A stretch of 64,000 nucleotides of DNA from NCBI RefSeq assembly GCF_902713615.1, contig NW_024055654.1, positions 4,021,185 through 4,085,184 of the forward strand, in the 5' to 3' direction. A program made the translations under genes and the position numbers. Below, in pieces: positions 1 to 7,340 of this stretch (the first letter of the stretch is position 1; each line of letters opens with the position of its first letter). Below the pieces are notes generated by a model. The model was not told the DNA's origin and ran no database searches. It saw nothing but the letters and a program-made list of their open reading frames with translations. This DNA is from Scyliorhinus canicula (Eukaryota).

Positions 1-1
1 A

Positions 2-2097
2 GCAGAGCTAGCAGCCATAGCGTACATAGTGGACCACCCCGATTCTTTCCCCAGCCCAGCAGACATATATTCAGACAGCTTATATGTCTGTAACAGTGTA
101 ACAGATTTTCTGCCCCTGTGGAGGACACGAGGTTTGTCTCCGCAGACGAAAACCCCTTCCATCAGCCCCCTTACCTCCAGCATATCCTAGATAAAGCGAA
201 GGACAGGACCTTCGCATAATAAAAGTAGAAGCCACCTAGGGTCTCACCCCCTGGGAAGGTAAAGGCCGACGCGTTGGCTAAGGGCAGGTTCCAGGAGAGG
301 ACACTTATGGACCCCCCCAGCTAGCGCACCAGCTAGCGCCCCTGTGAGCGCAGTCCAAGTCTCACAGACTGATATTAAAGATCTCGTGGCAGCACAGAAA
401 CAGGACGGAGACCTCAGGGAGGTTTTCAAGGGAAACTTTGTGCCTGCTTACGAGCACTTTAAACACGCACTGACCACACATGAGGGTGTGATCATTAAGG
501 ACCAACTTTATGTGGTCCCACAGCAGGACAGGAATCAGATGATTTGCCTGTTCCATGACGGACACGGGCATCAGGGAATTGATGCAACAACGAGGCACCT
601 CAGGCAACTCTGTTGGTGGCCTAATCTCAGGAATGATGTAACGCACTACATAGAGAATTGCCTGATTTGTGCTCAGAATAACCCGGAGAGGTATTCTAAG
701 AAGCACAACTTCGGCATACTCGCCCAGTTAACGGCCCTGGACAAACCTCCAGATCGACTTTATAGGTCCATTGCCCCCTTGTCGGAATGGCTATAAATAC
801 GTTCTGGTGGTGATAGATACCTTTACCAAGTGGGTAGAGGCATTTCCCTCACGAACAAATACAGCAAGACAGCTGCAAAGATCCTGACCCACCACATCTT
901 CACGAGATGGGGTTTACCCCGAAGTATCGATTCGGACCAGGGATCTCACTTTACAGGACGGGTCATGAGGAACGTCCTGACAATATTCGGAATCAACAGA
1001 ACTTCCACATTGCGTATCATCCACAGTCCAGCGGGATTGTGGAGCGCATGAATCGGACCCTAAAAACTACCCTTCAGGAAAATGGTCAAGAGAACATTCC
1101 ACATGGGATTCAGTGCTCCCCATTTGCACTTATGTTCATAAGGAACACTGTCTCCACATCGACAGGATACACACCACACACACTCATGACCGGACGCCCT
1201 ATGAAAGGTACAGAATTCCTTTTAGGACTGGACATGACAAGCCCCGAATTGACGGCCCTCACACATGAAAAGGCAGTTAAAGATCTAGTTGAGACTGTGA
1301 GGTCTGCACAGCTCGCAGCCGCAGTCCAGCTAGGGAAACGCCGACAGCAACGTACTGCCTGTTTCAATAAGACCGTACACACCACAGAATTCCAGGTTGG
1401 GCAACAGGTAATGTTATCTGTTTATAACCCCAGCAGTTTTTTGGCTCCAAAATATTCCGGTCCCTACTCAATTTCGGACAAAATTAGCCCTCCGTTTACA
1501 GGATAAAGTATCCTAATGGGAAGACCGCGTGGTTCCATATAAACCAGTAAAGGCATATGGAACACAGGCCAACCATGCTCACCATGTCCTGCTGGATGCA
1601 GCAGAACACTTCACCCCGCCCACCAGAGACACTTTTCCACCATCCCCCTCACAGACCAGTTCATCAACGGACTCGCCCACGACTCCGCCACAGACCACTA
1701 CAGACCACGCCCCGACACGCCCACAAGCTGCCACAGCAGAGACAGCAGGACATGACACTGACTCTGAAGACAGCGACACCACACAGCCATACAGCCCACA
1801 CTGCACCAACTACGACCCCGACTCCAGTGACCCCATGGAAGTCACCTACCTCAAATATCCAGAACCACCACCCGACCCCGACTACCCCGACAACACACTC
1901 GACGCTACACAATGGCACAGGGACAATTCCTACAGACTTGTCCGCAATGACGAGAGTGACCCCCGGTCACACAATCCAAAATAGCATGCCTGATCCACAC
2001 AAGGGTGTGGGATCCGGGAGAGCAGGACGACACGGTGTCTGACTCCCGACACGGCAACCCCTTTGTGACCCTGTTCACAGAGGCAGAATCAAAGTGA
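2..2097 (+). pseudogene. pol: pol C-terminal half: retroviral-type RNase H, integrase (HHCC zinc finger, DDE core, GPY/F) and a P/T/D-rich extension; frameshifted as assembled
   Basis: Frame 2 from base 2 reads AELAAIAYIVDHPDSFPSPADIYSDSLYVCNSVTDFLPLWRTRG (RNase H E and D motifs). ORF 344-796 has HDGHGH...CLIC. Stitched frames give WTNLQIDFIGPL, VVIDTFTKWVEAFP, SIDSDQGSHFTG, YHPQSSGIVERMNRTLK and KYSGPYSI. ORF 1529-1984 is the frameshifted continuation, with a probable stop TGA at 2095-2097. Confidence 0.9.
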
Positions 2098-3024
2098 GGT
2101 GTCCAGATGATGTAAGATAGGAATCGTTTGAGGGAAACGATGTCCTTTCTGATGGAACCTGCACGTATGTTTGTCTTCGTTTATGTTTGTTGTTTTCAGG
2201 AATGTAAATGTTTCAGCTGGAGGATGGACATCTTCTTTTCAGCTGAAAAGATTGTGACCACCTCACATACACGTTAGCTTGTCCTGCCGAACTTGAGAAC
2301 TTCGGTTTGATTGGAGATCTTTTCCAAAGTTGTAAGGCCACACGCCAAATAGCTTGTCCGCAGATATCTCTGGAACTTCAGTGATGTCCTCAGTTGGAGC
2401 ATCTGGCTCCCTTGGTTTTTTAGGTGCCCCTCTATTCGGCGAAATAGAGGCTGCAAGTCATGGTAAACACATTCGTACCCGTTTTTTTCCAGGTTACTCA
2501 GGCAGTGGACAAACGGCACTGAGGACCCGCCCTGTCTGAGAACCAACCCTTGGTCAGCCAAGCTCGGGTATGGCACAGCACGCCCTACCCGGGGATCCCA
2601 TCCAACTCATACCCGTCGCGGCCCATACGCAACTCATTCGGATGTTTGTTTCCAAGTTTGTTTTCATTTTACGTTAGGTACGCCCTTCGGCCACCATCCC
2701 ACATGCTATTTACATCGGGAACATTCGGATGGTAAATCAGCAAAGCCTGCGAGACGGCTCGCAGAAGGAAGGATTGTTAGGTGTATGCTGGTCTTTAAAT
2801 TCGCTTTTTGAAAAAAAAATGAGGGAGTCACAGGGTGTGACTTAGCCAGTCATTTTAAAGGGTCAATTGGGATTTGAAAGACAGATGCACTAACAAGTAA
2901 GGTCTTAAACTGTGTATTGACAGATACTGTGCTTGATCCCAAAGGTTTCAAAGGACGAGACAGAGGTCGAAGCCAGGATTGTCAATACCGGAGGAAGAAG
3001 GAAGAGAAAGAAGAAGAACAGCAA

Positions 3025-3378
3025 ATGATGGAAGCCCACTTATTACTGTTTAATGTCATATGTATATGTGTGGAAACAAGACACGTTTCCCCCACAACCC
3101 CCACCGTAAATGTTAGTACAACAAACCCCCAGTGCTCAGCTCTGATCAGCGAGGTTCAGACCTGGTGTACTAAATTCATGACGTGGTACTCCATGTCCTA
3201 CATAATCGAATCACTGTTGGTGATCGCGATCCTCATCGTCCTAGTGCAGACCCTCAGGTTGAGGAAATGGAAGAGGAGAGCCTCTCGTTCCAGCACCTCA
3301 CCCATCTATAGAGTGCAATCCCCCATCTTCGGATTCCACCAAACCCCTCAACCCCTCACTGATTACAACACTCTGTAA
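3025..3378 (+). CDS. 117-aa small single-pass membrane protein in the env position (FAST-fusogen-like architecture)
   Basis: ATG at 3025 is in frame with track ORF 2917-3378. MMEAHLLLFNVICICVET is signal-like; then an S/T/P-rich segment with an NVS sequon, C-X10-C, hydrophobic YSMSYIIESLLVIAILIVLVQTL and polybasic RLRKWKRR. The frame is uninterrupted, unlike pol. Confidence 0.7.
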   Translation: MMEAHLLLFNVICICVETRHVSPTTPTVNVSTTNPQCSALISEVQTWCTKFMTWYSMSYIIESLLVIAILIVLVQTLRLRKWKRRASRSSTSPIYRVQSPIFGFHQTPQPLTDYNTL

Positions 3379-3697: not shown

Positions 3698-3707
3698 AAG
3701 GAGGGAA
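3698..3707 (+). promoter_or_regulatory. Polypurine tract of the LTR element
   Basis: AAGGAGGGAA lies immediately before the TGT start of the LTR and is preceded by a stem-loop at 3663-3697. Confidence 0.8.
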
Positions 3708-4656
3708 TGTAGCCATGCTGGCCACGCAAAATGGACACTGAGCCAAACTAAAATAGAAGACTGCTGGGAAACAGACAGTTTAGCCAGAACAGCAGTCTGC
3801 AAAGAGCAGTTTGCATTCTGCAGCAGCAGAAACCAGTTTGGGCTCAGGTGAAAAGACCTTAGCTAGGTGCAAATGGCAAAACACTTTGCATGCTAATGAG
3901 GCCATCAGACTTGAACACCCACACAATAGATACATTTGGTTCTGAATGGACACATTCTAATCAAGACCCAGACATCGAGGCACCAGAAACCTCCAAACAA
4001 AAGGACATAAGAAACGCCCCCTCCATCACGGAGACCCCCTCGCATTGGGGAATTAATCCAGTATCGATAAGAAATTGATCCAATAGGTAGAGCCCGCCCG
4101 AGAAGAGGGAAGGACAATGGAACCCCTATAAAAGATAGGGACCTCGTGTTGTCCGGTCTGTTAAACCCGTGCTCCGGCTCTGACTGACATCTTGCATCCT
4201 GACTCCAGCCGTTGAGCACCAGCCGCCGAAACCGTAAGTTCAACGCTCGCTACGCGATCCAAGCCCACTAGACTCCCAAGTACCAGAACGCTTGCTGAAG
4301 GCTGCAGTGCCAGACCAGGACGAAGGCCTCGTTCTCTGACCTTGCCTGTTCCTGTTAGATAAGTATTCTGTTTGCTTAAGTTTAGTTATAGCTTAGTCTC
4401 TTAGTGTGTGCATGAGTATTTATTATAACTGTATAATAAATATTGATCGTTTGAACTTTACTAATCGGTGTATCGTCTTTATTACTTTGAACTTGACCTT
4501 GGAATACTTGTGACGTTGCCTATACGGCAACTGGCGACTCCAGAGCTAAATAATTACATAGAACAGAGCCTAGCAGTGTTAAGCACACGTCGAACTCGGA
4601 GGCGTGTTAATACACTCCAATAAACGCGTTTTACGCCCATAGTAAAACGTGCAACA
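3708..4656 (+). repeat. 3' LTR (~949 bp)
   Basis: TG...CA termini with an imperfect inverted repeat (TGTAGC/GCAACA), TATAAAA at 4127-4133, AATAAA at 4435 and 4619. The 5' LTR is not in the window, so the right boundary is inferred from where the flanking repeat resumes. Confidence 0.75.
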
Positions 4657-5450: not shown

Positions 5451-5486
5451 ATTATTGATGTTAGATTCAGTCGCTCTCATCTGTGT

Positions 5487-7340
5487 TTCTGACAATGTGT
5501 GTGTGTCTGCGTGTGCGTGTGTGTGAGAGGGAGAGTGTGGGTATGTGTCTGAGAGCGTGTGTCTGTGCATATGTATGTGTCTGCATTCGTGCGAGAGATG
5601 GATGAAGAGAGTGGGAGAGAGAGTATGCATGTGGGTGTGTGTGTGAGAGAGAGTATCTCTGTGTGTCAAAGAATATCTGTGTGTGAGAGCGTCATTGTGT
5701 GTATTTGTGCGAGCGAGAGGATGTGTGTGTGTGAGGGAGCAAAATAGTGTCCACAGGAGAGAGACTGTATGCGCAAAACTGTATGAGAGAGCATGTATGC
5801 ACCAAAGCATGCGAGTGAGACAGCATATGTGTGAGAGAGCATGTGTGCCAGACATCATGTTTGTGAGAGCATGTGGGTGAGAGAGTGTACGTGTGAGAGA
5901 ACGTGAGCACGAGACAGTATGTGTGAAAGAGAACATGTGTGCAAGAGAGCACACGTGCAAGAGAGCATGAGTATGAGAAAGCATGTGTGAGAGAGCATGT
6001 GTGTGAGAGAGCATGATTGTGAGAGCACGAGACACCATGTGTACAAGAGAACGTGTGTGAGAGCATGTGTGCGAGAGAGCATGTGTGTGAGAGAGCGTGT
6101 GTGCAAGCGAGAATGAGAGAGCTTGAGTGTGAGTGAGTGTGCAAGAGAGAATGAGAGAGCGTGTGTGTGAGAGAGCGTGTGTTGGTGAGAGCATGAGTGT
6201 GTGAGAGTGAGTGTACGAGAGAGCGTGTGAGTGAGAGGGCATGTGTGTGGGGGAGCGTGTGTGCAAGATAGCGTGAGTACGAGTGATATGTGTGTGAGAG
6301 AGCGTGTGTGTGAGAAAGCAGGTGTGGGAGAGTACATGTGTGTGAGAGAGCATGTATGCAACAGAGCAAGTGTGTGTGAAAGCATGTGCTCTAGAGAGCA
6401 TGTGCATCAGCGAACATGAGTGTAAGCGAGTGAGAGATTGCGTGCGGAGAGAGTGAGTATCAGAGCGCATGTGCATAAGAGAGTATGTATGAAAGAGAGG
6501 ATATATGTGTGTGAGAGAGCAGGAGTACAAGAGAAATTAAATGAAAATCGTTTATTGTCACGAGTAGACTTCAATGAAGTTACTGTGAAAAGCCCGTAGT
6601 AGCCACATTCCGGCGCCTGTCCGAGAATCGAACCGTGCTGCTGGCCTGCTTTAAAAGCCAGCGATTTAGCCTGGTGAGCTAAACCAGTCAGCATGTGTGT
6701 GAGAGAGGCCGTGTGTGTGAGAGAGCGTGTGTGTGAGAGGGTGTGTGTGTGAGAGCATGTGTGTGAGAGAGCATGAGAGAACGTGCGAGCGAGAGACGAT
6801 GCATGTCAGAGAGAGTGTGAGAGAGAGCGTATGCATAAGAGAGTGTGTGTGTGAGAGAGCGGATGTGTGAGAGATGTCTGTGACAGAGCATGTGTGTGAA
6901 CGAGTGTGTGCGCAAGAGATAACGTGTGCGAGAGTGCATGTGTGTGAGTGTGTGTCTGCGAATGATTGTGTATGTGAGTGAGATTGGTAAAACTTGTAAG
7001 AGAGAGTGTGTGAGAGAGTGTGAGAGGGAGATTGCCTGTGAAAGAGAGAGAGGAATAATGTGCCTGTGCCTGTGAGAGAGCGAGTGACAGTCTGTTGGTG
7101 TGTGAGGGAGATTTGGAGCGAGATAAAGTTGGAGACAGTGAGTATGTAAGAAACTGAGTGTGTGAGGCAGTGCGTGTGTGTGCCCGAGTGTGTGTGTGCG
7201 AGAGACTGTGTGTTTTTGAAGAGCTATTGTGTATGTGAGAGTGTCTGTGAGAGAGTGTCTGTGTGTTTGAGGAATAGTCTGGGTTTGTGGGAGAGAGGGA
7301 GTGTGTGAGGGAGAAACACTGTGCGCATGAGAGAGTATTT
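5487..7340. repeat. Degenerate (GT)n/(GA)n compound array with a recurrent GAGAGCATGTGTGT unit
   Basis: Read directly; it accounts for the His/Thr/Ser/Leu-rich spurious ORFs at 5385-7357 and is interrupted by a SINE at 6536-6686. Confidence 0.95.
6536..6686 (-). mobile_element. Short tRNA-derived SINE (CTGGTTTAGCTCAC... family)
   Basis: Reverse complement matches the copies at 21121, 26843, 52890 and 59400; tail TGACAATAAACGATTTTCATTT. Confidence 0.8.

Follow-up and report, generated by a model that had tools for sequence, protein, structure and literature searches.

A small membrane-protein gene conserved in the env position of an env-less catshark retroelement is probably a cut-down env

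ERVs that lack env are usually taken to let this gene decay, and the element described here, from the catshark Scyliorhinus canicula, raises the question of why an env-less retroviral element holds an intact small membrane-protein gene in the place of env, and what this gene may be doing. An earlier note on this DNA had read the gene product as resembling the FAST fusogens of reoviruses. The window (the whole stretch of DNA analysed, 64 kb in length) opens inside pol and continues on the forward strand through a 927-nt spacer, a 117-codon ORF, a polypurine tract and a 949-bp LTR. The 5' half of the element is not readable in this copy, and the whole element is described from sister copies.

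The visible 3' part of pol (1..2097), which ends in a TGA stop at 2095-2097, encodes RNase H, integrase (Pfam RNase_H, Integrase_H2C2 and rve pieces) and a long S/T/P tail. It carries many small indels, with 24 gap openings over 2,114 columns against one sister copy, and in the same window copy the small ORF is intact and the LTR has 2 gap openings against the sister copy; the pol indels are possibly assembly errors. From the pol stop to the polypurine tract (3698..3707) there is indeed no env-sized frame, as had been noted before, and the uninterrupted ORF is present in the letters at 3025-3378 with the features first described for it: a hydrophobic N-terminus, an NVS sequon at residues 29-31, C37-X10-C48, a single hydrophobic helix, RLRKWKRR and a short tail. 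The env position is otherwise taken up by a non-coding spacer (2098..3024) with no frame common to the copies; a second ORF considered within it was dropped because its frames vary between copies. The 3' LTR (3708..4656, TGT...ACA) shares 97-99% identity with either LTR of the sister copies and contains a TATA signal (4127-4133) and an AATAAA signal (4435-4440), with poly(A) loose ends in RNA run X22 falling at the matching place. Repeats also occur in other parts of the window: a long tandem tract rich in GA/GT, large inverted repeats that are ~75-90% identical, a 78-nt tandem array and numerous short interspersed elements (5485-7055; 38300-51800; 55528-56172; scattered).

Sister copies (n=19, selected for an intact small ORF) consist of an LTR, a gag of ~611 codons, a single stop, an in-frame pol of 1,408 codons, the spacer, the small ORF and a second LTR, and both large frames are open in 13 of the 19. 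The distance from the pol stop to the ATG of the small ORF is 932-955 nt in all 19. Pol comprises protease, RT, tether, RNase H and integrase domains; Gag has one zinc knuckle and begins M-A-M-Q, without Gly2. The gag stop sits in the context UGA-CGG, which PMC13517186 gives as a type II read-through context for VEEV and CTFV. Among 14 LTR pairs we counted 0-3 differences (0 in 9 pairs), with an exact 4-bp target duplication in 12/14, and insertion was therefore very recent. Head-to-tail tandem copies occur at L003/L010, L049, L175 and L301.

A search of the genome with the core motif pattern of the small ORF returned 3,221 matches against 20 for a reversed control, and in a protein search of the same genome all 150 scored matches, the best of 5,325 first-look candidates and hence selected for likeness, were 99-100% identical and stop-free. 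When 30 copies were instead picked by their pol tail, the ORF was open in 28, frameshifted in one and without a match in one. The copy in the window belongs to subfamily A. The older subfamilies B (~85% DNA identity), C, E/F and G were found with diverged queries and their copies are often broken; the small ORF is carried by A, B, C, E/F and G alike, down to pol pieces of 55-75% identity, and no env match was found in any of these subfamilies. The primer site behind the 5' LTR varies within single subfamilies, between a form matching a genomic tRNA-like end and several degenerate forms (L032-L050, L095-L110).

Conservation across subfamilies is not confined to coding sequence. A non-coding block at 2500..2750 retains an identity per 50 nt of 0.72-0.88 to subfamily C and 0.64-0.83 to E/F, compared with only 0.10-0.25 at 2200-2450, and is likely, judged by this pattern, a cis-acting RNA element. 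Together with 2100-2200 it outscores the small ORF in cross-subfamily conservation; an Rfam search of the conserved non-coding blocks gave no match, and the two may represent RNA export or packaging signals.

With respect to its placement among retroviruses, the RT of the element is 48% identical to that of SnRV (a 10,688-nt record taken as SnRV), versus 36-42% for three other reference retroviruses (WDSV, gammaretroviruses), and the closest relatives in the databases, elements of frog and coelacanth, reach at most 51% identity. In the tree a 100/98 branch splits the element from a Loki-like protein and from Ty3/gypsy, and the grouping with SnRV has a support of 40.8/42, which is weak, in a tree built without a foamy reference; because of this weak joining the label SnRV-like rests on identity and layout. 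The layout includes Gag-Pol expression by predicted stop read-through, a single zinc knuckle, a dual RNase H, the order PR-RT-tether-RNase H-IN and a PBS that starts TGGCGA in the element and in SnRV alike. The primer site of SnRV is that of tRNA-Arg; the PBS variant of the catshark element matches 21 genomic sites, where tRNA-Arg(TCT) was called in 1/4 at a relaxed threshold and 0/4 at the default one. In contrast to SnRV, the catshark element lacks env, has one small ORF without a match in SnRV and occurs in thousands of young copies, and its gag stop reads UGA-CGG rather than UAG-GGC. SnRV-like ERVs have been described from cartilaginous fish (PMC4422223, PMC4977317), and the catshark element agrees with SnRV and the ERVs like it, among them CmiERV lineage I of the elephant shark, in having gag and pol in a single frame interrupted by one stop (PMC12193657, PMC4977317, PMC4422223). 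The dual RNase H is also described for Lokiretroviruses, and database relatives of the element carry NYNRIN-like names that are likewise tied to that group (PMC7947760). Membership is contradicted by the 100/98 branch and by the RT motif, compared by eye, which is LPQG in the catshark element and C/MPFG in Lokiretroviruses as given there.

Purifying selection has kept the small ORF in no fewer than six subfamilies and in two species of catshark. Pairwise counts over distinct natural copies (22 from A, 15 from B, 12 from C) gave dN/dS values of 0.20 (0.10-0.34) for A/B, 0.35 (0.20-0.53) for A/C and 0.25 for B/C, with codon-bootstrap intervals below 0.55 and thus, as the earlier note had called for, below 1; gag/pol values were 0.07-0.18. 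These counts leave out 2/30 A loci and 13/25 C loci (broken or with no start found) as well as 6 duplicates, and include one C row (L123) with a shifted tail. Selection acts most strongly on the membrane-proximal motif, on a single side of the helix and on a motif in the tail: the core, residues 46-86, has a dN/dS of 0.05-0.21, and the linker alone, at 0.56-0.62, is not distinguishable from neutral. All 19 rows of alignment A3 share W47, C48, F51, W54, Y55, S56, S58, Y59, E62, L64, L65, Q75, T76, K81, Y95, S99, P100, I101, Q106 and P108.

The protein measures 111-123 residues in 13 of the 14 proteins checked and has one helix. Residues 1-18 (3025..3078) form a signal peptide predicted from hydropathy, the N-terminal value staying at 1.7-3.7 in 14/14 proteins though the letters change, with small-x-small residues at ~16-21. 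The following linker (3079..3159) is S/T/P-rich (fraction 0.42-0.57) and contains, in 13/14, an N-x-S/T sequon (N29 in the window). The aromatic membrane-proximal motif with Cys48 then leads into the TM helix with Glu62, Gln75 and Thr76 (3160..3255), whose best 19-residue hydrophobic window in the window protein starts at residue 56 with a mean hydropathy of 2.46. Next come the juxtamembrane basic cluster RLRKWKRR (3256..3279; 5-7 K/R in 14/14) and a cytoplasmic tail with a Y-x-x-x-S-P-I motif and the stop (3280..3378), which is disordered at a pLDDT below 50 in a structure model of low confidence (pTM 0.31) that places a helix at 35-89. The expectation that both cysteines, the helix and the basic cluster would be conserved therefore held for Cys48, the helix and the cluster and failed for Cys37, which is present in 22/22 A and 15/15 B copies, is Ser in 12/12 C copies and is absent from E rows. 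Subfamily F has a second ectodomain Cys at a spacing other than that of A/B, and C and E have none (L186, L237, L240, L243). Given a hydrophobic start and sequon that are retained, a Gly2 that is absent and a Cys37 that is lost in C, the small protein looks like a predicted type I glycoprotein.

Where might such a gene come from? The genome holds decayed enveloped relatives, family D and env2. The A3 profile matched the env2 anchor at E 2.4e-4 among 11,208 segments, over profile positions 20-104, and hhalign against this anchor gave a score of 27.8 and a probability of 46.7, above 200/200 block shuffles (mean 14.1 +/- 3.4, max 25.7). The match is weak, needs a 10-residue gap and concerns a family picked after several env families had been seen; it spans the W-x-x-x-F-x-x-W-x-S and post-helix T-x-basic-x-basic-basic-W motifs, and env2 also has an S-P-hydrophobic tail motif at a similar distance. 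Env family D, at a score of 16.0 and a probability of 1.3, was rejected as the source, its anchor match being no better than composition, and three env2-family hits from the D search beat 30/30 shuffles each, which 12 other rows did not. Against a further family, H, the anchor probability fell to 1.9, and with the two sets combined it was 16.5.

The DNA immediately before the small ORF also matches that immediately before env2. Acceptor-region scores were 34-46 for C, E, F and G, compared with shuffle maxima of 28-33; the window's own acceptor region, at 21 against a shuffle maximum of 27, did not beat its shuffles. At locus L254 a predicted env2 signal peptide starts 39 nt behind the shared acceptor motif, and the likeness of the signal-peptide profile to env2 is not significant (84/500 shuffles reach the real score; pairwise P < 0.05 in 5/16). 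The env2-type integrase is 52-62% identical to that of the element versus 35-46% for family D loci, in short partial alignments, and by these comparisons the env2 type is the closest enveloped relative found. Taken together, we consider it probable that the small gene is the old env of the sister family env2 minus its receptor-binding and fusion parts, likely an Env reduced to its signal peptide, a short linker, the membrane anchor and the tail. The caveat in the earlier note that the ORF could be an env remnant names the better-supported origin, given the env2 matches, but what we see is a remodelled gene under selection and not a decaying fragment.

In family H (L282-L299), which consists of old elements, the env2 ectodomain is deleted between acceptor and anchor in 18/18 loci checked, leaving no signal peptide. 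Family H shows that env deletions of the kind proposed for the small gene occur and spread, and represents a second, parallel shrinkage of env. Its among-copy dN/dS of 0.93 (0.75-1.17; 16 rows, 3 out of register) indicates neutral decay of the present copies, which may or may not have had a function earlier. Separately, a solitary open env-like frame of 765 codons lies at L161:3190-5484 on the minus strand, with a furin site, a hydrophobic peptide and a C-terminal helix; it has no gag/pol match within 20 kb and no Pfam or PDB match, and is a candidate host-domesticated env.

If the gene descends from env, it may also use the env splice site. The acceptor had been sought at 2915-2923, where a signal does exist, although TATTGAC at 2915-2921 looks like a branch point and the acceptor is more likely the predicted AG at 2943-2944, judging by conservation of the branch point and AG and by S. 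torazame models. This motif (2915..2944), common to the env of the enveloped sister family, is found in 29/29 A, 15/15 B and 19/23 C copies, the window's copy, like subfamily A, having a weak AAG acceptor, and two S. torazame RefSeq models, themselves predictions, join different upstream exons at the matching site. The spliced transcript that had been anticipated did not emerge, as none of the 8 joints listed from three RNA runs and one contig set is a GT-AG joint, read depth around the acceptor being 18-58 in the two bulk runs. The ORF is transcribed: in two oligo-dT runs, about one third of each being used and strand assumed from the usual library rule, presumed-sense depth over it was 41-44 and 93-105, that of the other strand 3-7 and 5-14, and gag-pol depth at most 10 and at most 45. 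We dropped this 3' rise as proof of a subgenomic RNA because the libraries were made with oligo-dT and because reads from sister subfamilies cross-map within the conserved block. In RefSeq models P0113-P0117, which come from two catsharks, host exons (HEPACAM2-like, EP3 receptor isoform) are spliced into the ERV region, possibly an exonisation through the env acceptor.

What, then, would an Env without its fusion machinery do? The membrane-proximal, helix and tail parts of retroviral Env serve sorting and contact with Gag. The parts kept here by selection are the aromatic membrane-proximal motif, the polar helix face, the basic cluster and the tail motif, and there is no fusion peptide or receptor-binding fold; SnRV Gag is presumed not to be myristylated in the account available (PMC2717909). 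On the grounds of this selection pattern and of a Gag lacking Gly2, a membrane dock for Gag or capsids is favoured. The best explanation as a whole, to which we give a little under an even chance, is a conserved gene and probable cut-down env whose product is predicted to act as a membrane dock for Gag or capsids instead of a fusogen. The old env spliced mRNA would encode the small protein, which would be routed into the secretory path as a type I glycoprotein and would use its helix and tail to bring the non-myristoylated Gag to a membrane, where it would assemble, bud or be passed on at contacts between cells; we hold this sequence of steps just as tentatively. Ranked by what the sequences suggest, the membrane dock would come first, an accessory action on host proteins second and fusion third.

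Vpu offers the comparison for accessory action on host membrane proteins. A Vpu-like small protein would bind a restriction factor or receptor of the host through the polar helix face with Glu62 and sort this target away through its tail motif. The helix residues Glu, Ser, Gln and Thr and the Tyr motif of the tail, all of them invariant, would suit such a role, as would the small accessory ORFs reported for SnRV and fish foamy-like ERVs (PMC12193657, PMC5210030, as far as these accounts go), but the profile finds nothing in SnRV (best E ~7), and Pfam, PDB and Atlas yielded no match above chance. We regard this reading as unlikely; it is compatible with descent from env and competes with the membrane dock on function only.

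The third possibility, which appears slightly less likely again, is the fusogen that the earlier note had in mind: an analogue, not a family member, of FAST or insect sORF2 proteins that would cause transient cell-cell fusion and let capsids pass, for instance out of the soma into the oocyte. According to PMC7412057 and PMC3952855, a FAST protein is small and acylated, crosses the membrane once and has an ectodomain of fewer than 40 residues and a basic cluster. The catshark protein resembles p10, p14 and p15, as portrayed there and in PMC12945298, in its ~100-200 residues, its single pass, its disordered tail and its basic cluster after the helix, and its ectodomain would be similarly short, ~37 residues, if the signal is cleaved (55 if not). 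The most constrained part, the aromatic membrane-proximal motif, would fit a fusogen, as would the second ectodomain Cys that A/B and F each possess, at differing spacings. A further parallel is sORF2 of the Drosophila MDG1-group retrotransposons (10.1101/2025.03.14.642691), likewise a small selected membrane ORF in an env-less LTR element. According to that study it measures 63-107 residues, candidates having been filtered for a myristoylation motif, and insect sORF2 genes can sit downstream of pol (7/22 Lepidoptera); the elements that carry it are Metaviridae, whereas the catshark element belongs to Retroviridae.

Against this stand several differences. FAST proteins, as characterized in PMC3952855, have neither signal peptide nor glycosylation, whereas the small protein retains a signal peptide, predicted by hydropathy only, and a predicted N-glycan sequon, and is likely Env-derived. 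A myristoyl Gly2, typical in the available accounts of p13, p14, p15 and most sORF2, is missing in 14/14. The cystine noose described as conserved in p10 (PMC7412057, PMC3952855) has at best a counterpart in the C-X10-C pair limited to subfamilies A and B, position 37 being Ser throughout the C copies, and the palmitoylated di-cysteine that follows the p10 helix is not found in A3, a single Cys within the helix occurring in C/E only. The ectodomain is mucin-like, and the 17 residues before the helix have a low moment (0.07-0.22) in 11/14 proteins. What survives of the earlier reading is a selected small single-pass protein with a juxtamembrane basic cluster in the env position of an env-less vertebrate element; what does not is membership of the FAST family. 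In our estimate the evidence lowers the claim that it is a FAST protein more than the claim that it works like one, and the element may still spread from cell to cell.

A viroporin, in which helix oligomers would form an ion channel, is improbable: the polar helix residues, the invariant Cys48 that could link chains and a neighbour in the Atlas, influenza M2 (score 0.85, no more than a lead), might point that way, but Atlas scores below 0.9 are common for shuffled proteins, and a channel needs neither signal peptide nor glycan linker. We judge it more improbable still that there is no working protein, with the frame a passenger or kept for an RNA signal; the missing splice junction and weak AAG acceptor of subfamily A would agree with this, but freely diverging synonymous sites have reached a dS of 0.5-1.5 while the protein was kept, and the signal-peptide character persists despite changed letters. 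Least credible is a captured TMEM156-like host gene, since the PF15106 signals in 19/19 related members (best E 0.0012) are all below the Pfam cut-off and not independent, and a genome search gave nothing past the cut-off, with 9/10 best places being ERV copies.

Database searches set the family apart. A single-sequence search with the small protein returned no hits, and profile searches found just 5 and 3 proteins, each of them a Scyliorhinus RefSeq model containing ERV sequence, so that five models of S. canicula and S. torazame are the only database homologues. Two metagenome hits were discarded as chance matches in unrelated frames. The PDB profile search gave no match, Pfam none above chance, and the best Atlas score was 0.89, a lead only. 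In the open-access literature searched, we found no paper describing this family or an Env anchor retained as a gene in its own right; the sORF2 study covered arthropod consensus sequences and viral proteins, and its available text does not mention sharks (10.1101/2025.03.14.642691). Small membrane ORFs are already known from env-less insect elements.

Env-less mammalian ERVs are known, and Suppressyn and Refrex-1 are restriction factors made of truncated Env. The catshark element resembles them in combining env loss with strong amplification and in a shortened Env kept by selection. In those cases, however, the receptor-binding part is kept or env decays, whereas the catshark element itself keeps anchor and tail across its subfamilies.

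Overall, a successful and recently inserting lineage seems to have retained and refined nothing of Env but its anchor and tail, in no fewer than six subfamilies and in two species, which points to a non-fusion job of the Env anchor in replication, or to Env-independent movement between vertebrate cells. Since the gene is small, near-identical in many copies and transcribed, its function is directly testable. A bolder extension, which we think has a low probability, is that a vertebrate Env anchor turned into a miniature cell-to-cell transfer factor, by which capsids would cross contacts, for example from follicle cell to oocyte, with no fusion peptide or receptor-binding domain left. If true, a vertebrate, Env-born counterpart of insect sORF2 would lie behind the insertion burst and would have powered thousands of insertions.
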